From IMG/VR virus record IMGVR_UViG_3300009181_001959, positions 1 to 54,525 of that record: a stretch of DNA of 54,525 nt. The stretch is one strand, 5' to 3'. Position 1 is the first letter of the stretch, and each line of letters begins with the position of its first letter. Shown here piece by piece: positions 24,181-42,561 of this stretch. The position numbers and the translations under genes were made by a program. Under the pieces are notes generated by a model. The model ran no database searches, was not told the DNA's origin, and saw only the letters and a list, made by a program, of their open reading frames with translations. The DNA is from a virus. Taxonomy: Duplodnaviria; Caudoviricetes.

Positions 24181-24195
24181 TTTATCGTTCAGCTG

Positions 24196-24516
24196 TTAGT
24201 CTAGTCGACTGCAACCATATGCCTTCAGGCCTAATGCTGTGAGGTATGTGGCGTAGGCATCTGCGCCAGCTTCCTTTACGCTAATGCTCTGCGTGGGCAC
24301 GCCAGCTGGATCCCACATGGTCAAGCACTTGGGCTTGTAGTCCTTGCGGAAGCCTGCGGCAATCAGCTCTTTAGCCTGAGCACTGTTAGTGCGGTCCACG
24401 TAGACCTCTACCCAACCAAAGCCGCAAGCATCGCGCTCGCCTATGCGTTGATACATGGCCAAGCCTGCTTGCTCTGCAATGGCCTTACCGCTACGGATCT
24501 GTTCTGCTGTAATCAT
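24196..24516 (-). CDS. Early hypothetical protein
   Basis: ACGFGWV...SRLD; cassette promoter and GGAG RBS. Confidence 0.85.
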   Translation of the reverse strand: MITAEQIRSGKAIAEQAGLAMYQRIGERDACGFGWVEVYVDRTNSAQAKELIAAGFRKDYKPKCLTMWDPAGVPTQSISVKEAGADAYATYLTALGLKAYGCSRLD

Positions 24517-24571
24517 CTATCGCTCCTTTTGTTTAACTTAGCCTATAGTATAGCACCGTCTTGCCAATATG

Positions 24572-24826
24572 TCAACTCAATACCACTACACGGCGTAGGG
24601 TTTCATCAACAACTTCGTTGCCCTCATCATCGAACTCTGTGTCGCCATCATCCTCTAGCATCTTGTCCATACGGTGATACTCACTGTAGACCACCGCGCC
24701 GTTATCCACACGGCTCAACTTGGGAGCCACTTCTGTGCGCCAGTGGTCGCCATAGTTATAGGCAAAGTGTACGTCTGACTCAGGGTTCATGTCCTGCAAC
24801 ATTTCTATCAGTTCTTTAACTTGCAT
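24572..24826 (-). CDS. Early hypothetical protein
   Basis: MQVKELIEML..YNYGDHWRT; TGA stop inside the next TTGACA. Confidence 0.85.
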   Translation of the reverse strand: MQVKELIEMLQDMNPESDVHFAYNYGDHWRTEVAPKLSRVDNGAVVYSEYHRMDKMLEDDGDTEFDDEGNEVVDETLRRVVVLS

Positions 24827-24881
24827 CGCTCTCTCCTTTTGTTTAACTTAACTTACAGTATAACATCACTCAACCAATTTG

Positions 24882-25076
24882 TCAACTGACATCTACTACC
24901 CATTGTAGGCAATTGTTGTAAAGATTGTACTCGGCTCTGAGGCTATCGCCGGGGAAGAACGGGTTGCTTACTATAGCATATGGAGCATCATCTGCATCCA
25001 TCTTGAAGCTGTGAACATCCACTTCCCACATGCCTAGGTCCTGTGCTATACCGCTGTCGATAAAGTGTACGTTCAT
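24882..25076 (-). CDS. Early hypothetical protein
   Basis: ATGA-coupled; TGA stop inside TTGACA. Confidence 0.75.
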   Translation of the reverse strand: MNVHFIDSGIAQDLGMWEVDVHSFKMDADDAPYAIVSNPFFPGDSLRAEYNLYNNCLQWVVDVS

Positions 25077-25447
25077 ACCCAGCTCTCCACCACGGTAACA
25101 GGCTTCTTCAAGACTCGTTTCACAAAGTCTTCGGGCTCGTCATCACAGCGTACCAGCACGAATCCCATGCTCTCTACCAAGTCCACCTCGCAGACCTGTA
25201 GGTCAATGCCACCAGCTTCAAACGCCACATTCATCTTGCTCAGTGCATACTTGACGCCTGCTTGGAAGGCCTCGTACTCGTTTGCACCCGTTTCATCAAA
25301 GTCGAACTCTGTTTGCATAATGTGCGCAAACTCTTGTCCATCTGCTACAATGAACTTGTTGATCTTTTTCCAGTTGGATTGCTTCTCGCTGTCAAAGTGG
25401 TCACAGCATTCGTTGATATCAAATGAGGCAAAGTTATCGTAGTTCAT
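25073..25447 (-). CDS. Early acidic hypothetical protein
   Basis: AAGGAGC RBS. Confidence 0.8.
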   Translation of the reverse strand: MNYDNFASFDINECCDHFDSEKQSNWKKINKFIVADGQEFAHIMQTEFDFDETGANEYEAFQAGVKYALSKMNVAFEAGGIDLQVCEVDLVESMGFVLVRCDDEPEDFVKRVLKKPVTVVESWV

Positions 25448-25456
25448 AATTGCTCC

Positions 25457-25732
25457 TTAAGCGGCTTCTAACATGTTAGCGGGCACACGCCACATACCTG
25501 CTGGGGTACGCACCGTCACATACTTAATGGCAATCTTAGTGACATCGCCAACCATTGTCTGACCAGTCTTGCTGGATGTGAACTTGACCATTTGACCTGG
25601 CTTGATCGAGTTCTTTACGTCTTTAGTCAGTTGGGCTCTGTTCCACTTGACCGCATCAATCATGCTGGACAGCTCTACGTTGGTCCATGTGCCAAACATG
25701 ATTGCACTATTAACTTCTTGGATTGTTTTCAT
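25457..25732 (-). CDS. Early protein with SH3/KOW-like C-terminus
   Basis: IKPGQMVKF...GDVTKIAIKYVTV....WRVPANML; cassette promoter. Confidence 0.8.
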   Translation of the reverse strand: MKTIQEVNSAIMFGTWTNVELSSMIDAVKWNRAQLTKDVKNSIKPGQMVKFTSSKTGQTMVGDVTKIAIKYVTVRTPAGMWRVPANMLEAA

Positions 25733-25797
25733 CGCTCGCTCCTTTTGTTTAACTTAACCTATAGTATAGCACCACTTGACCAAAATGTCAACCGATA

Positions 25798-26010
25798 TCA
25801 GCAGTCTGCGTCAAAGCTCTCCCACTCCTGAGCTTCGTCGGGTTGTCCATCATCCTCGTCAAGATCCTCGTCTTCGAGGATGTCGTTGCACTGCATCATG
25901 TCTGCCACTTCATCTTCGCTCATGTAGCTCAGTGCCATCTCTGCAACGGCTTGGGCACTGATGACACCATCCGCTATCATGTCCAACAGTCTAGTAGTTT
26001 GGGTTCGCAT
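25798..26010 (-). CDS. Early acidic hypothetical protein
   Basis: Ends DGQPDEAQEWESFDADC; cassette promoter. Confidence 0.8.
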   Translation of the reverse strand: MRTQTTRLLDMIADGVISAQAVAEMALSYMSEDEVADMMQCNDILEDEDLDEDDGQPDEAQEWESFDADC

Positions 26011-26051
26011 AAGGTTCGCTCCTTTTGTTTAACTTAACCTATAGTATAGCG

Positions 26052-26219
26052 TCACTTCGTGGTATTGTCAACCGATTTCATTGCTTGAACACCCCACCAC
26101 ATGATGAGCAAGCCAAAGAACGCATACCATAAGATGGCGCTAATGGGAGCGGCATCATCGGCGCCCATGGCACTGGCAACTAAGAGGAATCCCAGTAACA
26201 GTCTCAACGACCCTTTCAT
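26052..26219 (-). CDS. Small two-TM membrane protein
   Basis: Start MKGSLR at 26219 (ATGA overlap, GGAG RBS); two hydrophobic segments. Confidence 0.7.
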   Translation of the reverse strand: MKGSLRLLLGFLLVASAMGADDAAPISAILWYAFFGLLIMWWGVQAMKSVDNTTK

Positions 26220-26596
26220 ACAGTCTCCTTCACAACAAAGTAACGGTAGGGCAGGCCCAGGGTATAGCAAAGGTACTCGTCGTCCCCGTTGGTTTCTTCT
26301 GCTTCGTGGATCCAACGCATGGCCATCTCACGGTCCGTAGCACCCGAACGGAACAGGTCCTGCATACGCATCTCGAACTCATGCATGGCCACTTCTTCAG
26401 CGGCTTCGCGGTCCTTGTTCTCCCGATCAATGATCTTGGCAAGGTAGACGAACTCAGCTTCAAACCCTGCTTCAGTCCAGTCTGTGGTGTCGATACCGCG
26501 TGGGCGAACGCCGTAGGCATCCTTATACATATCCCAGAACTGGCAAGCATACTGCTCCAGGGTGCTCATCTCTTCCCAGCTTTTGAACTCTTCCAT
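26216..26596 (-). CDS. Early hypothetical protein
   Basis: WDMYKDAYGVRPR; cassette promoter. Confidence 0.85.
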   Translation of the reverse strand: MEEFKSWEEMSTLEQYACQFWDMYKDAYGVRPRGIDTTDWTEAGFEAEFVYLAKIIDRENKDREAAEEVAMHEFEMRMQDLFRSGATDREMAMRWIHEAEETNGDDEYLCYTLGLPYRYFVVKETV

Positions 26597-26653
26597 GTTG
26601 CGCTCCTTGTTTGCTAGTGTAAGTGTATATTATACAACCAAAACGCCAAACTG

Positions 26654-27103
26654 TCAACCAATCATTTTGGCACGTAGCAGGTCGCCTAGGCGTGGCTGAT
26701 GCTCTCCTGGAACAACCACACCCTCCACGAACAGGTCCACTCGCTCGCTGTAGTAGCCGTTGCTCTCACCCAACCAACGCACATCCACATATCCCTTGCG
26801 GGTAGCGAACTTGTAGAAGGTGTAAGTGTAGCTTTCGTAGTGCTCTTCGTCTGGCTCAGTAGCACCCGACACTTCTTCAGCGATCAGGAGTGGCTCACCT
26901 ACCAAGTCCTCGAGGACACCTGTGATGTCGTTGATGCGTACAGTCTCACAGCAGTCTTGCATGTGAGCAAAGAGGAATCGCTCGCCTTGTGCTGTTTCGA
27001 ACAGCATCTCGTCGCTATCAACGGAACCTGTCACTTGCACAAAGGTCTTGCCCAGCATCTGTGCCATGCCCCGTTGTGTGTCTACTGTGTTTTCGTAATC
27101 CAT
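26654..27103 (-). CDS. Early hypothetical protein
   Basis: Start MDYEN at 27103 after AGGAGC; HMQDCCE, WLGESNGYYSE; TGA inside TTGACA. Confidence 0.85.
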   Translation of the reverse strand: MDYENTVDTQRGMAQMLGKTFVQVTGSVDSDEMLFETAQGERFLFAHMQDCCETVRINDITGVLEDLVGEPLLIAEEVSGATEPDEEHYESYTYTFYKFATRKGYVDVRWLGESNGYYSERVDLFVEGVVVPGEHQPRLGDLLRAKMIG

Positions 27104-27171
27104 TGTGTGCTCCTGTGTGTTTGTGTCCATGTGTGTATTATAGCAAGGTTCAACCAATTTGTCAACCAAAA

Positions 27172-27576
27172 TTAAATGTCCGCGCACTCAGCGTGAACAG
27201 CTTCAACATGCGCAGGGTCCAAACGCTCAAGCCCTGCAATAAATGGCGCACCCACATCCAAGCTCACATAGTTGTCTGTTTGCATGCCTTGTTCGCTGTA
27301 GCTTACATCCATAGCTTCTGCTTCAGAGAAGCCGATCGTTTGCAAGTATGCACGGAGCTCCTGCAGGAACAATTTGTCTGTGTAAATGAGACCGTCAACT
27401 TCAGTTTCCCAGCAATTGCATCCCAGCTCGTCCGTTGCAAAGTACACGCACAGCTCGCCAAAGTCTTTGTCTATGTTGCAGTACTGCAAGTCCATTTTGG
27501 TAACGTCTACTGCTGTAGCTGTGCGGCTCCAAAAGCCACGGCCGTTTGTGTTTAGTGTTGTTGATACTTTGATCAT
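27172..27576 (-). CDS. Early hypothetical protein
   Basis: GLIYTD...YSEQGMQ; cassette promoter. Confidence 0.85.
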   Translation of the reverse strand: MIKVSTTLNTNGRGFWSRTATAVDVTKMDLQYCNIDKDFGELCVYFATDELGCNCWETEVDGLIYTDKLFLQELRAYLQTIGFSEAEAMDVSYSEQGMQTDNYVSLDVGAPFIAGLERLDPAHVEAVHAECADI

Positions 27577-27630
27577 TGTTCGCTCTTTGTACTGTTTAAA
27601 AACTTATTATAGCACGGGTCAACCAAAATG

Positions 27631-27870
27631 TCAACCAAATGCTTTGTATAACCCTACTAGCCCTATGGCTAATGATATGATGTTGACCACTGCCTGTGGC
27701 TTGTTCTTGACCCTAAAGGCCCATGTGAGGAACAGGATTGTGCCCACAGCAAAGGTTATGATGTTGTAGGGATATACAGCTGGGCCTATGGCATTGAGCA
27801 CGTGGCCCGCTACAATGAAGCCTGCTCCGGACCACTGTAGGGATTCGTCTGTTTGGGATTGTGTTAACAT
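27631..27870 (-). CDS. Small membrane protein (3 TM)
   Basis: Hydrophobic segments; TGA inside TTGACA. Confidence 0.8.
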   Translation of the reverse strand: MLTQSQTDESLQWSGAGFIVAGHVLNAIGPAVYPYNIITFAVGTILFLTWAFRVKNKPQAVVNIISLAIGLVGLYKAFG

Positions 27871-27933
27871 GTCTATTCGCTTTCTTAGTGTTTACAGTAT
27901 AGCACCACTTGCTCGAAATGTCAACCAAAAAAG

Positions 27934-27951
27934 TGTTGCGTTTTCACAACA
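27934..27951. promoter_or_regulatory. Palindromic site TGTTG-N8-CAACA
   Basis: tgttg-cgttttca-caaca, 9 bp upstream of the -35 at 27919-24. Confidence 0.55.
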
Positions 27952-27953
27952 GT

Positions 27954-28031
27954 TGGTGGGCCCCCCGTGAGTCGAACACGGCACCAATGGATTATGAGTC
28001 CACTGCTCTAACCAACATGAGCTAGGGGCCC
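27954..28031 (-). tRNA. tRNA with CAT anticodon, probably tRNA-Ile2 (lysidine type)
   Basis: GGGCCCC acceptor stem, GTGGA-CT-CAT-AA-TCCAT, GTTCGA T loop, encoded ACCA; resembles bacterial ileX more than tRNA-Met. Confidence 0.9.
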
Positions 28032-28038
28032 ATTGAGT

Positions 28039-28230
28039 TTAACTGAACTCTTTAATCAACTCGTATTCACCGTCTACGGTTTCTTCGTACACTGTGACGA
28101 TTGCACTCGTTTCCTTGTGCTCTTTCTCAGCTATGGCCAGTGCTTCTTTGCGACTAGCGGTAGTGAGGACTAGTTCTTGATGTCCTGCTCCGTCCTCAGA
28201 CCAGACTTCATATTGAACCCAATTACTCAT
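28039..28230 (-). CDS. Early hypothetical protein
   Basis: 63 aa ORF on the array strand. Confidence 0.7.
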   Translation of the reverse strand: MSNWVQYEVWSEDGAGHQELVLTTASRKEALAIAEKEHKETSAIVTVYEETVDGEYELIKEFS

Positions 28231-28283
28231 TTCTGTTCTCGTAGTATTGGGGGCATTGCGCCCCCATGGTTGTCACGCCAGGA

Positions 28284-28655
28284 TTAGAACGGAGTGTCGT
28301 CATCCTCAGTAACTTTGGCCTTAGCCTTAACTGGCGCCTTAGCCTTGACTGGAGCCTTGGCAACTGCTTTCTTAGTTGCTGTGGGAGTTGACACTGGGTT
28401 AGTGCGGGGAGTATTGCGCTCCACGTACTCCACGATGGTGGCCTGTGCCGCAACGTCTTGGAACTCTTCTAGTGCCTTAAGGGCAATAGCTGCCTCCATC
28501 TTGCTTACGGGCTCGTCCAGCTCTGCCAAACGGATGTCTGTGTGTCCACCCTTTGTAAGTACTTTGATACGCATGATATCATTTGCAAAGCGAACCTTGT
28601 ACTCGCCCATGTGTTTAGAAATACCAACTACCTTGAAAAGTTTATCTGTAGCCAT
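28284..28655 (-). CDS. Protein with Lys/Ala/Pro-rich tail (AKAPVK repeats), possibly DNA-binding
   Basis: KKAVAKAPVKAKAPVKAKAK; own promoter and AAAGAGG RBS. Confidence 0.8.
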   Translation of the reverse strand: MATDKLFKVVGISKHMGEYKVRFANDIMRIKVLTKGGHTDIRLAELDEPVSKMEAAIALKALEEFQDVAAQATIVEYVERNTPRTNPVSTPTATKKAVAKAPVKAKAPVKAKAKVTEDDDTPF

Positions 28656-28720
28656 TGTGTGTGCCTCTTTCTGTGTTTAAAAATAACGTTAGGAACATCC
28701 CAACGTATGCATTAATTATA

Positions 28721-28984
28721 CTACCGTTTTGGTTTGATGTCAACCGTTTTCTTACCTTTTTGAGCAACCTTCTTGGGCCGCTCAAACTCGCTTTGGACAT
28801 AATGAGCGATCAAACTTCGCTGGATCATTGTGACCAAATCGCCGTGATCTTCAGGGACCACAAACCTTACAGGGCATTCACCCCATGAGCTTGTCTTAAC
28901 GAATTGGTAATACCAACGACGATGCGCCTTGTTTGCCGGATTGAATATCGTCCAGGGCCTACCAAAAAGTTCCAAGCGACTCAT
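28721..28984 (-). CDS. Hypothetical protein
   Basis: SWGECPVRF; ATGA-coupled. Confidence 0.75.
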   Translation of the reverse strand: MSRLELFGRPWTIFNPANKAHRRWYYQFVKTSSWGECPVRFVVPEDHGDLVTMIQRSLIAHYVQSEFERPKKVAQKGKKTVDIKPKR

Positions 28985-29112
28985 TTCCTATTCAGGACCC
29001 ACTGTCTGATCACAGCCTCCAATGGTTGCCAGACATACTCGGGACCTTTGGGCCGCACTCGTTCCTTCTGTTTGGTATCGAACTCTTGATTCTTTTGTTT
29101 ATTTGTTTTCAT
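28981..29112 (-). CDS. Small basic protein
   Basis: Start MKTNKQ at 29112 overlapping the upstream stop region. Confidence 0.55.
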   Translation of the reverse strand: MKTNKQKNQEFDTKQKERVRPKGPEYVWQPLEAVIRQWVLNRK

Positions 29113-29686
29113 CTTCTTCTTCCGCCTCTTCGGCTTCATATTCGGCCATCGTTTCCGATATGCCAAACATCTCATCAAGTTCAGAAGGAATTTCTTCTGC
29201 TACTTGTTCAGATGTCATGTTACCGAGTTCGTAATAGGCATCATGCCCATCTTCGTATATGCCAGCAAAGGCCATACCTGGCTCGTAGTAATAAAGGCGC
29301 ACTGAGAAACCCAATGCTTCAAACTTGTCCATGGCCGTAGTAGGCGGAGCCCACGCACTGTCAAAACTCATCGTGATCTTGTTGGGTGTCTCCTGATGGG
29401 GTTCGTTATAGTCATCACCACCCACATCCCACTTGGTACCCCACTCGTTCACACAATAGTCATACCAGTTGCCATAGCCGTGGATTTCAATGTTACGGGC
29501 AGTGTCCTCTTCCAACTTCCTCTGCTCGTCACCGTCACCAACCCTGCCTGCCACAATATGCAGGCTCTCTGGCACTGGAGCAAACTCATTCAACAGTTTA
29601 CCATCTGCAAAGGCTTTCCTAGCCCGCTCAATCATTGCTGGGTCTTCGTGATGAAGTTCCAATGTGTTATTGCACCAATTAGGCAT
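29099..29686 (-). CDS. DUF1281/YubB(Api92)-like ferredoxin-fold protein
   Basis: MPNWCNN, NWYDYCVNEWGTKWD, FDSAWAPP, YYEPGMAFAG. Confidence 0.75.
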   Translation of the reverse strand: MPNWCNNTLELHHEDPAMIERARKAFADGKLLNEFAPVPESLHIVAGRVGDGDEQRKLEEDTARNIEIHGYGNWYDYCVNEWGTKWDVGGDDYNEPHQETPNKITMSFDSAWAPPTTAMDKFEALGFSVRLYYYEPGMAFAGIYEDGHDAYYELGNMTSEQVAEEIPSELDEMFGISETMAEYEAEEAEEEDENK

Positions 29687-29695
29687 AAGGGCTCC

Positions 29696-29959
29696 TTAGT
29701 TGAATTCGTAAAAGGTTACTGAAGAATCAATGCTCTGCAACTCCTGTGCCGCACGGGTCAGCATCTTGTAGCGAGCTTGAACTTGACTGCGTGGCAGCTC
29801 ACCATCGCATGTGAGGTTCTCTGGGCTAAGGTCACTGTCAATGCTGTCTGCAATCTTTTGACGATCCGTTGCACTCAACAGGCTCAGTGGCTTATTCCCA
29901 AACAGTTTGCCCCAACTGTTCTTTTTTTCTACATACTGCTCTATTGTGCTTATGTTCAT
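29696..29959 (-). CDS. Early hypothetical protein
   Basis: LSPENLTCDGE; cassette promoter. Confidence 0.85.
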   Translation of the reverse strand: MNISTIEQYVEKKNSWGKLFGNKPLSLLSATDRQKIADSIDSDLSPENLTCDGELPRSQVQARYKMLTRAAQELQSIDSSVTFYEFN

Positions 29960-30020
29960 CTCTGCTCCTTTTGTTTAACTTAACCTATAGTATAGCGTCA
30001 CTCAACCAAAATGTCAACCG

Positions 30021-30245
30021 TTATGCGTAGAAGTCTGTTGTAAATTTGCAACGGTCATAGATCACTTCGCGCACTGCGGTGTCGTTGATCTCACCATATT
30101 GATCTCGCTTTTGATCACCGATGAATCGCATAATGCTCATGGTCTGTTTCCAGTTGAGGCCTGCGGCTTGGGCCAGTGCCACTACCTTCTCGGCTACCAC
30201 TTCACCTTGGTCGGTGAACATGCCAAAGTCGTTTACATCGTTCAT
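30021..30245 (-). CDS. Early hypothetical protein
   Basis: FGMFT..G; DTAVRE; ATGA-coupled. Confidence 0.8.
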   Translation of the reverse strand: MNDVNDFGMFTDQGEVVAEKVVALAQAAGLNWKQTMSIMRFIGDQKRDQYGEINDTAVREVIYDRCKFTTDFYA

Positions 30246-30505
30246 GCTTGCTCCTTAAAGTAAATTGCCTTAGTGCGACCACCTTCTTCAACGTATGCAA
30301 TATTGTCTTGCCATTTTACGTTGGGGTGTGCAAGGATCTTCTTAGCAATGATCCTAACACTGCGCTCGTTGACAGCATCCGTTACATCATAGCCTGGACC
30401 GTGATTCGTAGCCCCGTCAGCAGTGTATGAATACTTACCTAAGCACCCGCACATACAACCGCGCTTGCCACTGTAAGTCTTTACAATTTTAGTGATGTCT
30501 AACAT
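30242..30505 (-). CDS. Early hypothetical protein with CxCGC motif
   Basis: YSGKRGCMCGCLGKY; cassette promoter. Confidence 0.85.
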   Translation of the reverse strand: MLDITKIVKTYSGKRGCMCGCLGKYSYTADGATNHGPGYDVTDAVNERSVRIIAKKILAHPNVKWQDNIAYVEEGGRTKAIYFKEQA

Positions 30506-30559
30506 GTCTGCTCCTTTTGTTTAACTTAGCCTATAGTATAGCACCACTCAACCAAACTG

Positions 30560-30757
30560 TCAACCTTCAATCCAACAATCCCTGGCTGACTGTGTGGTTA
30601 TTTCTTGCCCGCCTATGTAGTCACCATCAAACCCGTTGATGTTCTCCAGGGTCAGCCGATCCCCATCAATGCGGACAATCTTGCCTGATTGCTCAATGTC
30701 AGACTTGAAGCTGACCCAGTCCCCAACCTGCACTCGCTTGCCTTCTACTGTTGCCAT
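30560..30757 (-). CDS. Early SH3-like small protein
   Basis: VGDWVSFKSDIEQSGKI; TGA inside TTGACA. Confidence 0.85.
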   Translation of the reverse strand: MATVEGKRVQVGDWVSFKSDIEQSGKIVRIDGDRLTLENINGFDGDYIGGQEITTQSARDCWIEG

Positions 30758-30817
30758 CGCTCTCTCCGTTTGTTAACTTAGCCTATAGTATAGCACCAGT
30801 CCTTCGATGTGTCAACC

Positions 30818-30904
30818 AAAAAAAAGCCCGGGGAGCGAATCCGGGCCCCAAAAACCCTACTAGGGTTTTTAGACTTGAGGTCTAGTCTTCTGGGAGCGAA
30901 TCAG
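30818..30904 (-). ncRNA. Structured 3' UTR / candidate sRNA: four hairpins, two with loop AUUCGCUCC, ending in an intrinsic terminator
   Basis: CUG-AUUCGCUCC-CAG (30890-904), AGACU hairpin (30871-88), AAAAACCCUA palindrome (30850-70), GCCCGG-AUUCGCUCC-CCGGGC-U8 (30818-46). Confidence 0.55.
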
Positions 30905-31795
30905 TTAACCACGACGCATACAAGTCATCTCTGCAATGCCAGTCCAGCGGTCAGGGAACCCTGCTTTAAGATCCGCTAGCTTGAGCACCATACGTAGGCT
31001 GAGTTCTCTCAGCTTCTTCTTGTTTTGATCGATGAAGTCCAGGATCTCTTCTTTTGCACCCGGCTCAAACTCATACTTGTCTAGCATGCCGTCTTCAACG
31101 ATCTGTTTAATGCGCAACACCTTCTCACGCTCTGTGTCAATGGTAAGGTCAAGATAGTGACAGCGTGACTCCAATGCCTCAAGGTGATCACGAAGCTTCT
31201 TGCTTCTAACGTTTTCAAATTTGATGTTGGTGATAAAGATAGCACCACCCTTGAACTCAAAGCTGTCAGGCACACCTTCGCGACGCAACATGTGTGAGTC
31301 TGTGTTCCAATGAATCATACGCTTTGACCCGCTGTCCAATGCTGCCTTGAGAATGTTAAGGCTGAGGTCATCCAACAGCACACTGTCACAGTCATCAAAC
31401 ACTAGAATGTTTTTCTTGTCACTGAAGTTGTAGAGCTTGCAATACAGGCCCAACGCACTCATTGCACCCTTGACCACTTCATACTTCTTCAGCTTGTCAT
31501 TGCCAGCGATGTCTGCCATCATGTCATGCTTGCCCAAGACCTTCTCTACACCAAAGCTCTTGCCCACACCCGGGGGGCCGGATACGATCATGGCACGTAC
31601 AGCACCCTTTTTCACAGCACGGGTCATGTCGTCCAGTATGTTGAAACGTTCACGCAAGCGACCCATGATCTGGTCATCACTCTCGTTGAGCACCTTATCA
31701 ACCTTGTCCATCTCTAGACTTTTGACTTCGCCCTTAGAGGCTCTCTTTGCTGTAGTCATCTCTGCCATCATCTCCATAGTTACAACTCTCGCCAT
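30905..31795 (-). CDS. AAA+ / P-loop ATPase
   Basis: Walker A GPPGVGKS, Walker B LVFDDCD, FITN sensor, ALESR Arg finger. Confidence 0.9.
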   Translation of the reverse strand: MARVVTMEMMAEMTTAKRASKGEVKSLEMDKVDKVLNESDDQIMGRLRERFNILDDMTRAVKKGAVRAMIVSGPPGVGKSFGVEKVLGKHDMMADIAGNDKLKKYEVVKGAMSALGLYCKLYNFSDKKNILVFDDCDSVLLDDLSLNILKAALDSGSKRMIHWNTDSHMLRREGVPDSFEFKGGAIFITNIKFENVRSKKLRDHLEALESRCHYLDLTIDTEREKVLRIKQIVEDGMLDKYEFEPGAKEEILDFIDQNKKKLRELSLRMVLKLADLKAGFPDRWTGIAEMTCMRRG

Positions 31796-31848
31796 TTGTC
31801 GCTCCTAACTTGTTTAAAAATTAATTATACAGCCTTTTCGCTGTTTTG

Positions 31849-31992
31849 TCAATAGTTTTCCATCAAGCTTCGAATGTTTTCTTTACCATATTGAGCGGCC
31901 ACTTGGCACTCGGCAAAGTACTTATTCTCAGCTTGAACAGTCACGCTCAGTAGAGTGCCATTGACTTCAACGACTGCTCTCCATGTTTGCAT
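31849..31992 (-). CDS. 47-aa early protein absent from the ORF track
   Basis: MQTWRAVVEVNG...RSLMENY*; TAATG-coupled; TGA inside TTGACA at 31847-52. Confidence 0.75.
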   Translation of the reverse strand: MQTWRAVVEVNGTLLSVTVQAENKYFAECQVAAQYGKENIRSLMENY

Positions 31993-32465
31993 TATGCCGT
32001 TTCCTTAACTGTGGCAAGGGCTTCTGTCAATGGTACCAGCTTTTGATAGAACTGCTCGTCCGTCTTGTGGCAGTTGCCCACGTACCATACACCGTCCCGC
32101 ATGATGTAGTACCACTCGCCCCACGAGCCTTCAACCTCTGCAAAGAAGTCTACGAAGTTGGTATGTGTCTTCCACTCTGTACCCTTCTCGCCACGGTCAC
32201 GTCCGTAGAAGGTGCACATGTTGCCAAATTGTGTTTCGTAGTCCTCTGCGGATATCTCTGTGCCGTGATAGCCAAAGGCATGCTGGATGCCAATCTCGGG
32301 CTTCAAGCTGGACAAGTCGCCCAGTGCCACCAGTTGATTTGCTTTGACGCTGTCATAGTGCTCCTGGAGGATTGCTCCGTTGTGCTCTAGATAGCCGTCC
32401 CAGTGACAATATACGCTCTTGACATTGTCTCCGTGCATTACGCCAATTCTGCTTCGTGTTCCCAT
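31992..32465 (-). CDS. Early hypothetical protein
   Basis: MGTRSRIG...YCHWDGY...YGRDRGE; cassette promoter. Confidence 0.85.
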   Translation of the reverse strand: MGTRSRIGVMHGDNVKSVYCHWDGYLEHNGAILQEHYDSVKANQLVALGDLSSLKPEIGIQHAFGYHGTEISAEDYETQFGNMCTFYGRDRGEKGTEWKTHTNFVDFFAEVEGSWGEWYYIMRDGVWYVGNCHKTDEQFYQKLVPLTEALATVKETA

Positions 32466-32533
32466 ATCGCGCTCCTTTTGTTTAACTTAACCTATAGTAT
32501 ACGTTCACTTCGTGATTTTGTCAACCACTAACT

Positions 32534-32608
32534 TGGCGCCAAGGACGGGGATCGAACCCGCCTAGGTCGGATAGACAATCCGTTGCCCTCCCAGAGGACT
32601 ACCTTGGC
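32534..32608 (-). tRNA. tRNA-Asp (GTC)
   Basis: GCCAAGG/CCTTGGC acceptor, G73-CCA, loop TT-GTC-TA, GGTTCGATC T arm. Confidence 0.85.
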
Positions 32609-32617
32609 ATTATAAAA

Positions 32618-32940
32618 TGGGCTCAGTCACAGACTGATTTAATACTCCCTGCTCAGCGTTTTGACATGCATCCCTTGCGGGCTGACCTTCAAGGTCCATT
32701 TAATGCGTCCTGCTTTGCGTTCTGGAGTAACCCTAACTCAAATGGCCCAACACCATAGAAAAACACACTAACAACATGGGCAATTGGATCTCCCTGTCTA
32801 ACCGAACCAACTTCGGCAGTGTGTTTATCTATGTTGTCGCGGAGGCCGAGTCTCCAAACTCGCTTCGTATCCCTTGGTTACAACCCTTTTTGCATTTCTG
32901 CTGGGTTCTTACATTTGAGGATCGCCTTTATCTTTTAACT
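32618..32940 (-). ncRNA. Candidate structured non-coding RNA(s) co-transcribed upstream of tRNA-Asp
   Basis: Promoter at 32948-32976 with no convincing ORF downstream; many stems, GNRA loops, 16-bp closing helix 32754-69/32818-33. Confidence 0.5.
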
Positions 32941-32956
32941 TGTTCTTATTGTAGCT

Positions 32957-33211
32957 TCACTTCTTGAACTTGTCAAGCACGGATTTAATAACCTTGTTCG
33001 CTTCCTGGGTATTTTCAATCTCCATGCCCTTACGATACTGCTCCACCAACTCCATCTTCATCATCTCCACGATGCTTTCACACTCGGCCCGCTCTCGCTT
33101 GGGCAGGGTTGCAATGAACCGCTCCACGTCGGTCCATTCCTCGATACTCCACATGATGTCGGCCAGCACCCGCTGACGATCATTCAAACCTTCTAGTACA
33201 ATCTCTTCCAT
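32957..33211 (-). CDS. Early hypothetical protein
   Basis: AAGGAG RBS; runs through the next -35 box. Confidence 0.8.
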   Translation of the reverse strand: MEEIVLEGLNDRQRVLADIMWSIEEWTDVERFIATLPKRERAECESIVEMMKMELVEQYRKGMEIENTQEANKVIKSVLDKFKK

Positions 33212-33221
33212 GCTCTACTCC

Positions 33222-33419
33222 TTATTGTGCAAAGATTTCTTTACTGAGAATCTCGTCTTCAACCACTTGATGGCATGCGTTGAGTGTGAGCATGACAAAG
33301 TGAGTGGCCAGTGCTCGCTCCGCACCCGATAGGCATCCCAACATCTTCTGCAGAGACTCCAAATTAGGTGTTGCCCACATACCACTACGGGGGATTGGGT
33401 TTTTAACTGTATCATACAT
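33222..33419 (-). CDS. Early hypothetical protein
   Basis: MYDTVKNPIPRSG; full cassette leader. Confidence 0.8.
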   Translation of the reverse strand: MYDTVKNPIPRSGMWATPNLESLQKMLGCLSGAERALATHFVMLTLNACHQVVEDEILSKEIFAQ

Positions 33420-33476
33420 AAGTGTCGCTCCTTTTGTTTAACTTAACCTATAGTATAGCACCACTCAACCAAAATG

Positions 33477-33644
33477 TCAAGCACCGTTGTAGGGGCTGAA
33501 CTCTTCCTGTTGTGTTTCTGCAACACCCTGTTCGGTCAGCCAATCATAGACGAACGACACTGGGCAAGCCAGTTGGGTTGCAATCTCCCGGGGGCTCAGC
33601 CCGTCAATGTAGAGCTGTTCGATATCATATGCTAGTTCACTCAT
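33477..33644 (-). CDS. 55-aa helix-turn-helix protein absent from the ORF track
   Basis: MSELAYDIEQLYIDGLSPREIATQLACPVSFVYDWL...; GAGG RBS; TGA inside TTGACA. Confidence 0.75.
   Translation of the reverse strand: MSELAYDIEQLYIDGLSPREIATQLACPVSFVYDWLTEQGVAETQQEEFSPYNGA
33508..33525. promoter_or_regulatory. Palindromic site TGTTG-N8-CAACA
   Basis: tgttg-tgtttctg-caaca, 27 bp upstream of the -35 at 33475-80. Confidence 0.5.
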
Positions 33645-33909
33645 CAAAGGCCTCCTCGCCCATTTCGGTTACTGTTTCGGTTGTAATGCCCAAGTCAATG
33701 ATTCGAGCTGTTTGATCTTCGTTACTGACACCGTGGAAAGCGCCACGGAACGACTGATGCTCTGCTAGGAAGTCGTATACATCGTATCGATCCCAGCTGT
33801 CCGGCACTTCAAGTTCTTGATATAGCTCTGTTCGTACAATAACCTTCTTCATACCCAGCTCCTTTAGTTTATCAACCGCACTCGTTTTCTTACTACGAAA
33901 TCCTGTCAT
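33637..33909 (-). CDS. Early hypothetical protein
   Basis: ATGA-coupled; an internal start at MKKVIV is possible. Confidence 0.7.
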   Translation of the reverse strand: MTGFRSKKTSAVDKLKELGMKKVIVRTELYQELEVPDSWDRYDVYDFLAEHQSFRGAFHGVSNEDQTARIIDLGITTETVTEMGEEAFDE

Positions 33910-34607
33910 GCCGCCTCCGCCACACGGATTACGAACCCGCTATAATCTTTCTTAGCACGACCCTTGGCCTTAAGTCCAAGCATAATGCCTTTAGGATCTA
34001 AGAAGCGCAAGTCATCCAAGTCCGCACTGGGCACACCCGCTGGGATCTTGTCGTAGACTGCAACCACGCTCATGCCTTGCAAGAGTGCTTCTGCAACATC
34101 CGAATCGTTGCCGTCAGCTTTGCTGAAGGTCAAATGGTAGTTTTCGATATGCTTGACTTTGCGTCCCAAGACCTTGGTGTAGTCGTAGAACTGAATGCCT
34201 GCGAACACGTCAAACACATTCTTGCCTTCAGTCATAGTGTACTTCTCCCACGACAAGTCGCTGGTACCATTCAAACGGAACACTGGCTCCAAGCCCAGCT
34301 TGTTGGCAAGTCGTATGCCCTTCTTGATGTCTTGCATCAAATCAAACATGAAGCCTGCACGGTCATTGTAGAAATAATTAGTCTTGCGGATGCGTGCCTT
34401 CTGTATGACATTGGTAGTCTCGCCACGTTTGAACATGCCACCACGCCCTGCGGTGTTAAGGCAAGCGGCCGTGCAACCCTTTGTGGCCTTGGGGCAAGTA
34501 TTGTGCCCGCTAAGGGTGGATGGGGCAAGGTGTAAGATGAATGATAAGTATCCACGCTCTGTACCCTTTTGGATCTTGGGGTTCGCTGTTGAAAGTAATT
34601 TAAACAA
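33906..34607 (-). CDS. Phage Gp88-like protein (Cys triad, radical-SAM-like)
   Basis: CPKATKGCTAACL, RLNGTSDL, QFYDYTK, NYHLTFS, DDLRFLD; TTG start after the cassette leader. Confidence 0.75.
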   Translation of the reverse strand: MFKLLSTANPKIQKGTERGYLSFILHLAPSTLSGHNTCPKATKGCTAACLNTAGRGGMFKRGETTNVIQKARIRKTNYFYNDRAGFMFDLMQDIKKGIRLANKLGLEPVFRLNGTSDLSWEKYTMTEGKNVFDVFAGIQFYDYTKVLGRKVKHIENYHLTFSKADGNDSDVAEALLQGMSVVAVYDKIPAGVPSADLDDLRFLDPKGIMLGLKAKGRAKKDYSGFVIRVAEAA

Positions 34608-34700
34608 GGTTCGCTCCTTTTGTTAACTTAACCATAGTATAGCACCAGTTCACCAAGCTGTCAAGCACTCGTTGAAGAAGCCTGACAGTTTGGAAGGGTA

Positions 34701-34964
34701 TTACATACTCCAGTAGGATTCACAGCTGGGCGAGCAATAGTTGGGAGTATCATATCGTTCCGTGTACTTGCCGCCACCCATCATGTTGGTTCGCTCCACC
34801 ATTGTCTCGTGGATCTCATAGCGGAAGCCTTGGCTTGGACGCCACGTATGCTTGACGGTATGCTCCAGCATACTCTTATTGTCTGTATCGTAGTCCGTCT
34901 TGCTGACAAGGCGCTCGCCTGTCTTAGTACGAGCATCCTTTTTATAAATTTCAACTGTATACAT
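34701..34964 (-). CDS. Early hypothetical protein
   Basis: Ends DTPNYCSPSCESYWSM; cassette promoter. Confidence 0.85.
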   Translation of the reverse strand: MYTVEIYKKDARTKTGERLVSKTDYDTDNKSMLEHTVKHTWRPSQGFRYEIHETMVERTNMMGGGKYTERYDTPNYCSPSCESYWSM

Positions 34965-35017
34965 ATCGCGCTCCTTTAGTGTTTAAGTGTATAGTATAAC
35001 ACCATCCGACCGTTTTG

Positions 35018-35248
35018 TCAATCCCAGCTTTTCTTCCCGCCGTATTGCTCGTTCCAATTGTAGCCTGCCGTATAGGCCACGATCTCATCCACAGTCATGT
35101 TGGCCAGTTCAACACGGCTACCGCTGTCCCCACCCACTCCGCCGTAGTGGGGATTGAATGGCCGGCTGTACCAACTGTCCGCTGAGCCACGATCAAATGG
35201 TGTACCGTGTTTGGTATCGAATCGCTCTCGTATGTCTTCTGCTATCAT
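35018..35248 (-). CDS. Early hypothetical protein
   Basis: HGTPFDRGSADSWY; TGA inside TTGACA. Confidence 0.85.
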   Translation of the reverse strand: MIAEDIRERFDTKHGTPFDRGSADSWYSRPFNPHYGGVGGDSGSRVELANMTVDEIVAYTAGYNWNEQYGGKKSWD

Positions 35249-35257
35249 ATGCGCTCC

Positions 35258-35593
35258 TTAAAGGTATTGGTCATTGAGTTGGGGTCTAACAGTCTTAACG
35301 ATCTCGCGCTCACGAGCATAAGCTTCTGCCCTACCCCTAACTATCTCTATTATACGATGAGTCCATGACATTGTCAATCCGCCAGTCTTCAAGTATACAT
35401 ATAAGGCCCACTTACGATCTTCGTTACGGGCTCTGCTGGTATGCTTGCGCCAACGCTCCTTAACTGCCTTGTCCGCAGTCAACGAGCCCTTGCGTGTCAA
35501 GCCAATGTATGAGTCTCCAGCTTCGCTGACTACTTCATATATGATATATGAGCAGTCCTTGCGTGGGGTTCTACGTGTCTTTGTTTCCATCAT
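35258..35593 (-). CDS. Small GIY-YIG-like nuclease
   Basis: YIIY...SYIGLT, ERWRKH, AYARERE, PQLN; ATG 6 nt after the -10 (leaderless). Confidence 0.75.
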   Translation of the reverse strand: MMETKTRRTPRKDCSYIIYEVVSEAGDSYIGLTRKGSLTADKAVKERWRKHTSRARNEDRKWALYVYLKTGGLTMSWTHRIIEIVRGRAEAYAREREIVKTVRPQLNDQYL

Positions 35594-35646
35594 ATCATAA
35601 TTATAGTGTCACTTGCGGATCTTGTCAACCAAAATCCGCACTCGTT

Positions 35647-35664
35647 TGTTGTTAATTTACAACA
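35647..35664. promoter_or_regulatory. Palindromic site TGTTG-N8-CAACA
   Basis: tgttg-ttaattta-caaca, 18 bp upstream of the -35 at 35623-28. Confidence 0.55.
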
Positions 35665-35792
35665 TCGTCTAGTACAATAGCGAGGTCGTTAAATGCTGTC
35701 TGTATAGCGTCGTGCTCGTCTAAGCCCGCTTGGTCCAACAAGTCTTGTAACTGTAGCATTAAGCTGTCGATTCTGCGCTTGACTTCTGTCAT
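35652..35792 (-). CDS. 46-aa early protein absent from the ORF track; first gene of the array
   Basis: MTEVKRRIDSLMLQLQ...DDVVN*; promoter 35819-47 and AAAGGA RBS. Confidence 0.7.
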   Translation of the reverse strand: MTEVKRRIDSLMLQLQDLLDQAGLDEHDAIQTAFNDLAIVLDDVVN

Positions 35793-35892
35793 GTGTTTCC
35801 TTTAGTGTTTAAGTGTATAGTATAGCATGACTCAACCAAAATGTCAACAGCAAAATAATACCCATGATGCCGTCATGGGTTCATCAAGGGGG

Positions 35893-35921: not shown

Positions 35922-36006
35922 TAAGACATAATAAGAAAACGGGTAGACCGCAATAGTGTTCGAACTACTTAAGGGGATGGACGGCGAGGCTGGGCGAACG
36001 GTTCTT

Positions 36007-36034
36007 GGTTAGTTGGCGCTAACTAACCGTTTTG
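36007..36034 (+). terminator. 22-bp near-perfect palindrome plus T-run (terminator or protein site)
   Basis: GGTTAGTTGGC/GCTAACTAACC then GTTTT. Confidence 0.45.
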
Positions 36035-36837
36035 GTTCGGAAATTGGTTTGGAAAATACAACACCTTCACCAAAAATCGGTTGACAATTCGGCGGACCGT
36101 TATCTACCTTTCTCCACTTTGGTAACCGCCTAATGACCTCCCAAGACCTTTGTGTCTAAATTCGCCTTGATAACCTCCGAATGGATTACTAGTTAGTGCA
36201 GACAATCATAATGATAATGAACACACAAGTCAATAAGTCTAGTATACTATACACTAGTGGGTCACCGTATAGTATATCATACACTGTATAGGCCATGTTG
36301 ACTGTATATACTGTATAGCTAGACGGCTCAAACTAACCTTATGACTCTGTATATAAGAGTCTATACAGTCTCTAGGTTGCGGTGCCCCGCCTCTCGTGTA
36401 TATACACTGTAGAGCAGAGTGTAGACTGAGTGTAGAACCACACTAGAACACCGTTAAAAGGCGGTAGAAAAGTGTGAAAGAGTGTGATAAAGTGCAACAG
36501 ATTCGCGATTTCGCACCGTTTGAAAGGCCTAGGATGCAGAATAATGCACGTAAATTTTTTGGAGGCTCATGGTGACGAGAGGCTATGTTCAAATACTCTC
36601 TCAATGCTCATCTACGCAAGCCAAATACTCTCCCTACGCATCGCTACGCACACGCCATTCTCCTATAGTCCTCCCGTGTATATACAGTAACGTAAGGTGC
36701 CGCATCCATTTAGCCCTAGGATCAAAACCTTAACAAGAACTCTAATCAATATTGTCTACCTTGTGTACACGCTACACCCAAGACACCACAGCTAGCTCTT
36801 TGCTACGCAGTTCATACGCAGTGTGTACGTGCAAGAC

Positions 36838-37113
36838 CCCACAGCTAGACCATTAGTATATACAGGACTATATACACTATGCGCCTATACTGTTATAAAT
36901 GTACTTGCCATTGGACCACTCGTGAGTTGTTATGGAATCTTGTACGGGATAAAAATGGTTTTATCAGTGATCAGATCAGTCACATGTTGTTTTGGTTTCC
37001 AGAGTCTTGTAGGGACTTTGCATTGTTAATTGATCCCACGCTGGAACCCGTACCACGGGAAGATTATATTGTATAGTGCTATACACGCATACCCACAGCT
37101 AGACCATTAGTAT
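36838..37113 (+). repeat. 22-bp direct repeat CCCACAGCTAGACCATTAGTAT flanking a small ORF
   Basis: Exact copies at 36838-59 and 37092-113; partial copy at about 36779-95. Confidence 0.9.
36879..37076 (+). CDS. Small hypothetical protein
   Basis: 65 aa; loosely similar in pattern to 23240..23446 (MR.Y...FW.PE). Confidence 0.55.
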   Translation: MRLYCYKCTCHWTTRELLWNLVRDKNGFISDQISHMLFWFPESCRDFALLIDPTLEPVPREDYIV

Positions 37114-37236
37114 CAGTGTGCCCAATAACAAGCCCACGCCAAATGCTTGTACGCACATGAACATTAACGCTACACAATAGTATAGTTCATTGTCCAGTAT
37201 GGTGTATACGAAGTTCATGATAGTTGTTGACTGCAT
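37099..37236 (-). CDS. 45-aa putative membrane protein absent from the ORF track
   Basis: MQSTTIMNF...GVGLLLGTLILMV*; TAAATA at 37241-46. Confidence 0.4.
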   Translation of the reverse strand: MQSTTIMNFVYTILDNELYYCVALMFMCVQAFGVGLLLGTLILMV

Positions 37237-37260
37237 GTGATATTTACTATATAATATACT

Positions 37261-37320
37261 ATGAATTACATCATTTTATTTGTTATTTGGATCGCTATCT
37301 ATGTCATACTCATTGCTTGA
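37261..37320 (+). CDS. 19-aa hydrophobic peptide MNYIILFVIWIAIYVILIA
   Basis: TTGACT(37227)-17-TATAAT(37250) with ATG 5 nt downstream. Confidence 0.45.
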   Translation: MNYIILFVIWIAIYVILIA

Positions 37321-37422
37321 CATGTATTATACTTTAGCACGACTAGGACTTGGTCTTAGCGGAATTGTTTATGACATACAAATACCGCGGACGCGGTGCG
37401 CTTCGCGCAGTGAGGGCATAGC

Positions 37423-37956
37423 ATGAACTTGATCAACTATAATCTCAGCTGGCATCGTAAGGTAGTGCTCATACACGATTACTTTCCCCAAAATGTACTA
37501 GAGGATCTTGATCTTATGACGGCCACTAGTGCTTGGGGTTCTTATGCACAGGCACATAGAAGTGTCATGTCTGGTCATACGGGTGTCACTGACACCTATC
37601 TCAATACTATCGCAAGATCTCATGTGAGTGCTTGGGCAGGTAGGGCTTTGGTGTTAACCTCATGGCAGTTGTGGCGGGACACTGAGGGGTTAACTTATAG
37701 ATGGCACACGGATGCCAGGAAGTTCAAACCCGCTGAATATCACATGCAGATCTATTTGGGCCATGGAGATGCAAGTATGGGCACACGTTTTCATCACAGC
37801 ATATTCTCACCCAAGCCCACTATAGAACTGAGTTACACACGCAACGCCGGCTACTTCATGAGCAGACCACAGAACATATTACACAGCGTGGCGCCGGTGC
37901 CACCAAATCAATGCCGTGTCAGTGTGATAGCAAGGTACACACATGAGCCACAATAA
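37423..37956 (+). CDS. 2OG-Fe(II) oxygenase
   Basis: WHTD (HxD), GTRF, LHSV, RVS. Confidence 0.75.
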   Translation: MNLINYNLSWHRKVVLIHDYFPQNVLEDLDLMTATSAWGSYAQAHRSVMSGHTGVTDTYLNTIARSHVSAWAGRALVLTSWQLWRDTEGLTYRWHTDARKFKPAEYHMQIYLGHGDASMGTRFHHSIFSPKPTIELSYTRNAGYFMSRPQNILHSVAPVPPNQCRVSVIARYTHEPQ

Positions 37957-42560: not shown

Positions 42561-42561
42561 T

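Follow-up and report, generated by a model that had tools for sequence, protein, structure and literature searches.

Open loops with C-rich (UCCC) motifs enable regulatory RNAs such as RNAIII and RsaE of Staphylococcus aureus to pair with Shine-Dalgarno sequences. In large lytic phages, the timing of gene expression is usually credited to proteins, namely sigma factors, anti-sigma factors and nucleases like RegB, and to our knowledge very few phage-encoded regulatory RNAs have a known target. Here we describe an RNA element in a 54,525-nucleotide stretch of viral DNA (IMG/VR record IMGVR_UViG_3300009181_001959, Caudoviricetes; hereafter the window), where an AAA-type ATPase gene on the minus strand is followed, at 30818-30904, by hairpins that display one and the same loop, AUUCGCUCC. 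In one clade of freshwater jumbo phages, the element forms the 3' untranslated region (3' UTR) of a gene for an NrdC.10-like ATPase. It comprises two or three hairpins with a near-invariant 9-nt loop closed by a G-C pair, and the last hairpin doubles as an intrinsic terminator. The window is part of a jumbo phage, since four of its relatives are complete or near-complete records of 300-372 kb.

Like RNAIII and RsaE, the element presents several copies of a C/U-rich motif (here CUCC within UCGCUCC) in loops complementary to a set of ribosome-binding sites (RBSs), and one RNA would act on many targets. Unlike them, it is phage-encoded, lies in a 3' UTR and is known here from sequence alone; it shares neither sequence nor structural homology with them, and its match of 6-9 nt extends past GGAG into a clade-specific extension. 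It shows three of the marks of an anti-Shine-Dalgarno RNA: a C/U-rich motif in open loops, several copies of it, and complementarity to RBSs beyond chance. Its location downstream of a stop codon, with the terminator of the mRNA as its own, is that of a 3'-UTR-derived small RNA (sRNA).

The enterobacterial 3'-UTR sRNAs SdhX and NarS, as far as the available parts of the two reports describe them, also combine an mRNA 3' end, a shared terminator and a conserved short seed (PMC6393394, PMC7038943), and the element could, like them, couple the expression of its parent gene to that of other mRNAs. It differs from them, as they are described there, in that its seed is repeated in loops instead of forming one linear stretch and in that its own leader is a predicted target. 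In T4, according to the available part of the source, the RegB protein cuts within the GGAG of early leaders (consensus GG*AGRAYARAA) and so inactivates early mRNAs through the GGAG of their RBSs, including its own mRNA (PMC3014915). The purpose proposed here is the same, inactivation of early mRNAs at GGAG including that of the regulator; however, RegB is an RNA-cutting protein whereas here an RNA would mask the site, and no sequence relationship connects the element with RegB as presented in that source. The giant Pseudomonas phages 201phi2-1 and phiKZ produce sRNAs from 5' UTRs and intergenic regions, with targets given as unknown in the available part of the report (PMC11512511). These, too, are conserved small structured RNAs of jumbo phages tied to a homologous neighbouring gene, but the phages are unrelated and that part of the report describes no anti-Shine-Dalgarno loop.

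Two hairpins with one loop follow the ATPase gene

The features of the locus, in the order of transcription, are as follows.

31824-31852, minus strand: promoter of the ATPase gene, sigma-70 type, TTGACA-17-TATAAT, 12/12 consensus match
31799-31805, minus strand: Shine-Dalgarno sequence GGAGCGA of the ATPase gene, predicted loop target; duplex -13.1 kcal/mol, -9.0 kcal/mol after mRNA opening
30905-31795, minus strand: ATPase gene, an AAA-type open reading frame (ORF) of 296 amino acids with stop codon TAA at 30907-30905; the RNA element is its 3' UTR
30872-30926, minus strand: hairpin 1, imperfect stem formed partly by the last ATPase codons, apex CUG-AUUCGCUCC-CAG, -15 kcal/mol
30893-30901, minus strand: loop 1, AUUCGCUCC, 9 nt, reverse complement of GGAGCGAAU
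30850-30870, minus strand: hairpin AAAAACCCUAGUAGGGUUUUU, made of an A-run, a stem and a U-run, terminator-like in both directions
30818-30846, minus strand: terminator hairpin GCCCGG-AUUCGCUCC-CCGGGC followed by U8 (30825-30818), with loop 2 at 30832-30840
30787-30815, minus strand: promoter of the next early gene, TTGACA-17-TATACT, 11/12, its TTGACA (30815-30810) abutting the U-run

On the minus strand of the 54.5-kb window, the 11-mer GATTCGCTCCC stands at 30892-30902 and 30831-30841 and at no other place on either strand; the motif ATTCGCTCC likewise occurs exactly twice, on the same strand at the same two sites. These positions confirm the identical 11-nt repeat reported in an initial annotation of this DNA, which placed the same loop on two hairpins and the second loop on the U8 terminator. 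That annotation counted four hairpins; the two that share the loop stand, while the number four depends on the fold chosen. Behind the ATPase stop codon the transcript reads CUG-AUUCGCUCC-CAG, a small hairpin, AAAAACCCUAGUAGGGUUUUU and GCCCGG-AUUCGCUCC-CCGGGC-U8, after which comes the next promoter. The fold of hairpin 1 has a z-score of -2.34 and its minimum free energy (MFE) structure a frequency of 0.43. Taken alone, its loop sits on a stem of only 3 bp. The extended fold is in competition with a small second hairpin that the 101-nt fold contains, and this 101-nt fold is only slightly better than its shuffles (z = -1.7). The ensemble shows the two loops fully open; to open them costs 0.02 kcal/mol.

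The hairpin at 30846-30818 has the G+C-rich stem and following U8 of an intrinsic terminator; it is absent from our terminator scan because the scan limited loops to 3-8 nt and this loop has 9. The hairpin at 30850-30870 is also present in three relatives (L002, L004 and L006), with altered stem and loop letters. Direct 11-nt repeats within 100 nt number eight in the window, compared with 1.36 +/- 1.15 in a first-order Markov simulation, and the 11-nt repeat of the element by itself shows no more than chance. The comparison with relatives is what decides for the element.

The loop is conserved and its stems covary

A search of viral contigs with the ATPase protein returned 31 loci at 49-100% identity, and the conservation fraction is based on these. 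UCGCUCC is found in two to three copies within 190 nt after the ATPase stop in 30 of the 31 (three copies in L028 and L029), the sole exception being the most distant locus, L030. The same unbiased set supplied 38 distinct hairpins, which were aligned on the loop and used both for a covariation test and for a covariance model, R1. Over 12 symmetric pairs, 107 cells are changed on both sides, as against 57 +/- 6.6 after shuffling, a value that none of 500 shuffles reaches; the covariation score is 0.417, compared with 0.191 in shuffles and 0.12-0.18 for slid partners. Loop conservation in relatives that keep GGAGCGA leaders and covariation of the stems, both of which the initial annotation's proposal entailed, are thus borne out. 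Loop positions A13 and U15-C21 are invariant in the 38 hairpins, and the closing pair G12-C22 is G-C in 36, A-U in two and unpaired in none. The pair below it is C-G in 23, G-C in five, U-A in five, A-U in one and unpaired in four. In the window, R1 scores 32.4 bits at 30881-30913 (E = 2.3e-6) and 29.9 bits at 30820-30852 (E = 1.2e-5), and it also matches the ingroup loci L037, L093, L139, L183 and L185.

MFE folds of 24 non-identical loci show the motif in apical loops, and the stems below are wholly unlike in sequence; L028, for instance, has three perfect stems of 12-15 bp. Conserved unpaired sequences lie beside an apical stem of 2-3 bp, namely CCAACG..CGGCAA in the first hairpin (L013, L014, L018-L020 and L022) and UAAGYCCG..CGGCA in the last (L007-L027). 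A third hairpin type, CCAAGUC...ACGGCAAGG, recurs as a middle or as a terminator hairpin.

Further loci came from pattern scans of viral contigs for tandem ATTCGCTCC. These were chosen for carrying the motif, and all counts from them are counts among the matches listed; because of that selection they are excluded from the 30/31 conservation claim. The 216 locus-strands listed divide into 82 of hairpin type with a T-run, 17 others linked to the ATPase, which missed the strict hairpin criteria, and 117 that are neither. An ATPase homologue stands directly upstream in 80 of the 82, the remaining two lying at a locus edge. The 117 were set aside, as samples of them proved to be coding tandem repeats or isolated chance pairs. 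Still among the matches listed, 86 loci have two copies and five have three, and the first motif starts 3-99 nt past the end of the ATPase alignment in 79 of the 80 hairpin-type loci. Of 180 distinct instances listed, 135 have an MFE fold with the exact 9-nt hairpin loop, compared with 166 of 1800 when flanks are shuffled and 420 of 1800 when right flanks are swapped between instances. At least five T follow the last motif in 86 of 91 listed loci, and at least five A precede the first in one of 91, so the element RNA runs in the direction of the ATPase gene. The broader ingroup set, partly motif-selected, comprises at least 96 non-identical ATPase-linked loci in 754 kb. Many of the loci derive from related lake samples and uncultured genomes, and their counts are not independent.

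In the four complete or near-complete relatives (G001-G004), hairpin-type copies occur at the ATPase 3' UTR only. The only hairpin-type copy noticed off a 3' UTR is a CUCG-AUUCGCUCC-CGAG hairpin at 6449-6463 (plus strand) of L185, about 2 kb upstream of the ATPase 3' UTR and adjoining a tRNA gene, to which R1 makes a partial match of 17.4 bits. Taken together, these results make it almost certain, in our view, that the ATPase strand gives rise to a genuine RNA element that is both conserved and structured.

The loop complements the Shine-Dalgarno form of the early leaders

The loop is the reverse complement of a leader form that recurs in an array of early genes around the ATPase gene. The array and the leaders with the longest matches, besides that of the ATPase, are the following.

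24547-35847, minus strand: early-gene array, small genes with 21 promoter-like sites at 11 or 12/12 consensus
24520-24526, minus strand: GGAGCGA, leader of the gene starting at 24516; net energy with the loop -11.4 kcal/mol
25736-25742, minus strand: GGAGCGA, leader of the gene starting at 25732; net -10.6 kcal/mol
26015-26022, minus strand: GGAGCGAA, leader of the gene starting at 26010; net -9.9 kcal/mol
33425-33431, minus strand: GGAGCGA, leader of the gene starting at 33419; net -10.3 kcal/mol
34610-34617, minus strand: GGAGCGAA, leader of the gene starting at 34607 (TTG start); net -10.6 kcal/mol

With the ATPase leader included, the net energies of the six GGAGCGA leaders range from -9.0 to -11.4 kcal/mol after the mRNA opening cost. 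The leaders that the initial annotation had listed are all present: GGAGCGAA (26010, 34607), GGAGCGA (24516, 25732, 33419 and 31795), GGAGCG (26596, 32465, 34964, 35248), GAGCGAA (27576) and AGCGAAU (27870). For a count over the window, a leader was taken as GGAG with a start codon 8-14 nt later that opens an ORF of at least 40 codons. By this definition, GGAGCG is found at 10 of 26 array sites and at 0 of 31 sites outside the array (Fisher p = 1.2e-4), and the full GGAGCGA at 6 of 26 and 0 of 31, so the further claim that RBSs outside the array lack the CGA extension holds. A loop duplex of -10 kcal/mol or lower is predicted for 12 of 31 array leaders, as compared with 2.7% of all 30-nt background windows. 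The proposal that many early genes would be affected has to be read more narrowly: only six leaders in the window have a 7-nt and ten a 6-nt match.

The same preference extends across the clade. In the 754 kb of ingroup sequence, sense-strand GGAGnnn(2-6)ATG occurs at no fewer than 841 sites, with nnn being CGA in 350, CGx in 430 and Cxx in 614; on the antisense strand of the same loci CGA occupies 8 of 121 listed sites, which is no preference. Among the matches listed, the position after GGAG in 713 distinct leaders is C at a frequency of 0.71 and G at 0.05, and the positions that follow are G (0.54), A (0.53) and A (0.52), with about 0.1 G in leaders elsewhere. The CG(A) extension is presumably not complementary to the 3' end of 16S rRNA beyond GGAG, so that pairing with the rRNA would not account for it. 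The leader of the ATPase gene itself is more consistent than leaders generally, with GGAGCGA in 48 and GGAGCG in 58 of 64 distinct ingroup leaders listed. Three whole relatives contain 12, 11 and 16 GGAGCGA(2-6)ATG sites, against 0, 2 and 3 for a reversed-pattern control, and in G003 such sites cluster near the ATPase locus. Outside 3' UTRs, six of the nine exact ATTCGCTCC sites in G001-G003 simply reflect GGAGCGAAU leaders on the other strand, with ATG after them.

Both features are missing together in an outgroup. Ten outgroup loci related to L030, with ATPases 39-100% identical to that of L030, carry no motif after the gene, and CGx follows GGAG at 0 of their 71 GGAGnnn-ATG sites. The element is likewise absent from L269, whose ATPase is 44% identical to that of L028, and from PA5oct, the nearest named phage by ATPase identity (50%), where an unrelated hairpin lies 3' of the gene. 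No significant R1 match appears in the outgroup loci searched with it (seven of the ten), in L269 or in PA5oct. A sister clade with a different loop core was sought among the relatives of L030 and L028, and only loci without the element were found. Loop and Shine-Dalgarno extension thus occur together, one clade having both and the outgroup neither. Of the co-evolution with the RBS envisaged in the initial annotation, this joint presence and absence is the part that is seen; the loop core is the same in all carriers found, which leaves no co-variation of loop and leader to observe.

Transcripts over the locus

RNA data were available as assembled contigs from four lake or freshwater metatranscriptome runs (X1-X4), and such contigs cannot resolve a free RNA of about 85 nt. 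Contigs of all four runs cover the ATPase gene. In X1, a single contig spans 30527-31096. X2, X3 and X4 belong to three studies, and each has a contig that stops at 30892 or 30893, where loop 1 has its 3' edge; over 30609-30869, these three runs have zero contig cover. X4 also contains an adapter-flanked fragment, 30880-31091, which at its lower end reaches the 3' foot of hairpin 1 and has read 1 on the plus strand; assuming the usual stranded library type, this implies a minus-strand RNA. These data hint weakly at discrete 3' ends of a minus-strand RNA, at 30893 and at 30880. The contig ends and the junction at 30880 may reflect processing, exonuclease trimming or an assembly effect. The window promoter scan found no internal promoter for a separate small RNA.

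Interpretation of the element

We give about an even chance to the reading in which the loops of this 3'-UTR RNA pair with the extended Shine-Dalgarno sequences of early mRNAs, including its own, and mask the RBS. Pairing would most simply account for a loop that is open, invariant and exactly complementary to the peculiar Shine-Dalgarno form of the clade. The open loops would pair with AGGAGCG(A) on early mRNAs driven by sigma-70 promoters and would cover the site that the 30S subunit requires, such that translation would drop as the RNA builds up. The outcome would be autoregulation of the ATPase, and some of the early genes would be damped in concert. The ATPase mRNA is the most consistent predicted target, and a subset of early mRNAs would be further targets. 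We infer the pairing and its negative sign; the RNA may act either within the mRNA or, once processed, as an sRNA.

Several observations weigh against this reading. Shine-Dalgarno pairing leaves A13, the near-invariant closing pair and the conserved stem-side sequences unexplained, which suggests a definite shape of the kind that a protein, as an additional or alternative partner, would recognise. The most distant carrier, G004/L028, has three perfect hairpins but only two GGAGCGA..ATG sites in 372 kb, with local leaders of the form GGAGCGU/C and an ATPase leader that is only GGAGCAA. Similarly, L020 and L023 retain the loops, yet their ATPase leader is AAAGGAACAC. An early promoter would produce the RNA simultaneously with its targets, and two loops would face at least 20 strongly transcribed leaders; because of this, a regulon-wide shut-off would need an RNA that outlives the mRNAs. 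The joint presence and absence of loop and extension amounts to one clade versus an outgroup and may be a single evolutionary event, and among the loci found the loop core never varied. Counts of G-U pairs are 265 for the sense and 377 for the antisense strand, and only 72 of 180 instances fold more stably in the sense orientation; G-U asymmetry was set aside as uninformative for a strand test. Pairing and repression are predictions, and a free sRNA is a candidate species.

The invariant A13, the near-invariant G12-C22 and the conserved unpaired sequences, none of which pairing needs, are typical of a hairpin recognised by a protein. The hairpins might accordingly be binding sites for a phage or host RNA-binding protein (the ATPase, a translational repressor, or a processing or stability factor) that reads AUUCGCUCC, its closing G-C and the neighbouring internal loop, with the Shine-Dalgarno complementarity being secondary or incidental. 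Strict linkage to one gene would fit such a site, with 97 ATPase-linked cases among the matches listed and only two hairpin-type cases without the ATPase, at locus edges, as would G004, which keeps three perfect hairpins with few matching leaders. We nevertheless consider a protein site unlikely, since it leaves the clade-restricted C-G(-A) after GGAG unexplained, since ATPase homologues at 35-50% identity (T4-like phages, PA5oct, the L030 clade and L269) do without the element, so that the family can dispense with it, and since no candidate protein was identified, RegB-, Hfq- and CsrA-like genes not having been searched for in the window. A purely local role at the 3' end, with tandem terminators and exonuclease-blocking hairpins that set mRNA half-life, no leader pairing, and a loop kept for folding or termination efficiency, would agree with the last hairpin being a terminator in 86 of 91 listed loci, with the second terminator-like hairpin at 30850-30870, and with the contig ends at 30892/30893 and the junction at 30880, which fit exonuclease trimming to a hairpin. 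Terminators and protective hairpins, however, need no invariant 9-nt loop while their stems vary freely, other terminators of the array have unrelated loops, and the exact fit to the dominant Shine-Dalgarno form of the clade would be a coincidence; we regard this local role as distinctly unlikely.

The same complementarity would also support pairing of the opposite sign, in which the RNA shields GGAG from a RegB-like or host endonuclease, or holds mRNAs in reserve, and early expression is prolonged or timed instead of shut off. The C after GGAG in 71% of leaders, where the RegB consensus has a purine, would fit shaping by a GGAG-directed nuclease, but no RegB-like gene is known in the window, no search for one having been made; a duplex over the Shine-Dalgarno sequence also blocks the ribosome, and net activation would need an extra release step, for which reason we think protection decidedly improbable. 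The initial annotation offered as its alternative that plus-strand loops showing GGAGCGAAU titrate a CsrA/RegA-like protein. This, or a function of the DNA itself as iterons or a single-strand origin, appears highly improbable to us. The G-U counts fail to discriminate the strands, and in the subclade of the window the hairpin at 30850-30870 could terminate a plus-strand transcript after the loop at 30831-30841. Against plus-strand titration count the terminal runs (A-run in 1 of 91, T-run in 86 of 91 listed loci); moreover, no nearby plus-strand promoter scores above 9/12, and the X4 fragment implies minus-strand RNA under the library type assumed. Covarying stems, for their part, are unneeded for sites in double-stranded DNA.

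Returning to anti-Shine-Dalgarno pairing, it would be a long shot, in our estimate, that the clade has a private early-mRNA code, in which the leader form AGGAGCGA departs from the canonical one after GGAG and the RNA competes with the anti-Shine-Dalgarno tail of the ribosome. The displayed loop presumably resembles the 16S rRNA tail in its outer positions. In such a code, the loop would fit phage leaders better than the ribosome does and would provide a protein-free timing of the early-to-middle switch, and the sign, masking or protection from a GGAG-directed nuclease, would set whether early expression is shortened or prolonged.

An RNA element and a clade-wide RBS peculiarity match base for base across about 100 uncultured jumbo-phage genomes. 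If pairing is true, this would mean a protein-free damping of an early gene set along with autoregulation of a conserved ATPase, and it would account for the avoidance of canonical GGAGG by the leaders. The element would then be a base-pairing regulatory RNA with a new carrier, a new architecture and a new clade-specific target code. Even without pairing, it is a well-defined new RNA motif with strong covariation that is not in Rfam.

Comparison with other RNA families and databases

Several known kinds of repeat or RNA were tried as explanations and rejected. A tRNA T-arm as source of the motif is contradicted by a T-arm-like context in only 2 of 532 tandem-motif instances listed. Antitermination of the nut/boxB kind does not fit a locus whose downstream genes are each served by a separate consensus promoter and whose loop recurs in none of the other array terminators. 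In a CsrB/RsmZ-type sponge, the loops would be expected to show GGA; the sense loops are without it, and the strand that shows GGAGCGAAU has terminator polarity in 1 of 91 listed loci. A CRISPR repeat or repeat-mimic RNA was dismissed, as the stems differ between copies and genomes and the loop alone is kept. Repeats of the ToxI type are exact tandem units of about 36 nt upstream of a toxin gene. The copies here share only 11-13 nt and lie downstream of a gene, and a type III toxin-antitoxin ToxI was rejected.

An Rfam 15 scan of eight loci with E up to 1 gave no family at or near its gathering score for the element. The matches in those loci were tRNAs, two sub-threshold Plastid-ycf2 matches opposite two of the tRNAs, and anti-hemB at 26.1 bits (gathering score 49.5) on the terminator of L006. 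A blastn search of the region against a phage collection gave no match. In full-text literature, supplements aside, GGAGCGA, UCGCUCC, TCGCTCC and GGAGCG are not described in this sense, nor is a phage anti-Shine-Dalgarno RNA.

Bacterial and archaeal genomes were searched for two GATTCGCTCCC copies 20-50 nt apart. This yielded 83 stretches, and tblastn found the ATPase in none of 81 locus-strands, of which 61 are tandem repeats with identical flanks and 20 belong to other repeat families. We conclude that a prophage or host copy of the element is absent from that bacterial and archaeal collection. One Natronospirales and three Thalassolituus maritimus genomes contain many copies of an unrelated repeat, CGCGAAT(C/A)...GATTCGCTCCCACAGGG, which includes the 11-mer by chance; the contigs with this interspersed or tandem family are L272, L274, L279, L293, L299, L304, L319, L322, L334, L335 and L340.

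The ATPase gene and the early-gene array

The ATPase scores 28.3 bits against Pfam AAA_16, under the cutoff of 32.6, and matches phrog_1250, a family of unknown function, with E = 1.3e-80. In tblastn searches, its identity is 35% to the T2 gene that carries the annotation nrdC.10 and 50% to a PA5oct gene labelled 'thioredoxin'. By sequence comparison the protein is a homologue of T2/T4 NrdC.10, whose function is unknown. Many T4-like and PA5oct-like records label this family 'thioredoxin'. The member in the window shows AAA ATPase and clamp-loader-like signals only, which makes the label look like a propagated mis-annotation.

Over 22797-35847, the minus strand contains 22 TTGACA-17-TATAAT sites with an 11 or 12/12 match, the 22nd of which (22797-22825) lies outside the array. 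In the whole window there are 47 promoter-like sites, as against 24.2 +/- 4.5 in shuffles. Downstream of many array promoters is a shared leader, ATAGGTTAAGTTAAACAAAAGGAGCG(A)...ATG. Gene starts in the window and its relatives were assigned by crude rules. With such gene calls, genes outside the array (1-22000 and 36000-54525) have a weak RBS of GGAG type or none, mostly AAGG, AGGA or nothing, which leaves the strong AAGGAGC(G) leader as a feature confined to the early array.

Three tRNA genes lie on the minus strand, Met-CAT at 27954-28031, Asp-GTC at 32534-32608 and Arg-TCT at 43498-43572. The first two are inside the array, each immediately upstream of a promoter cassette. Spacer and leader of the array promoters are often near-identical (TTTTGGTTGAGTGGTGC...ATAGGTTAAGTTAAAC). 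Contigs of X1, X3 and X4 join the cassette near 32500 (at 32501) to a site near 30000 (at 30000), with five letters between, which may represent a strain with another order of modules or a mapping artefact, given similar cassettes at the edge of the mapped stretch. The repeated promoter-leader cassettes before small genes are possible recombination points for the shuffling of gene modules.

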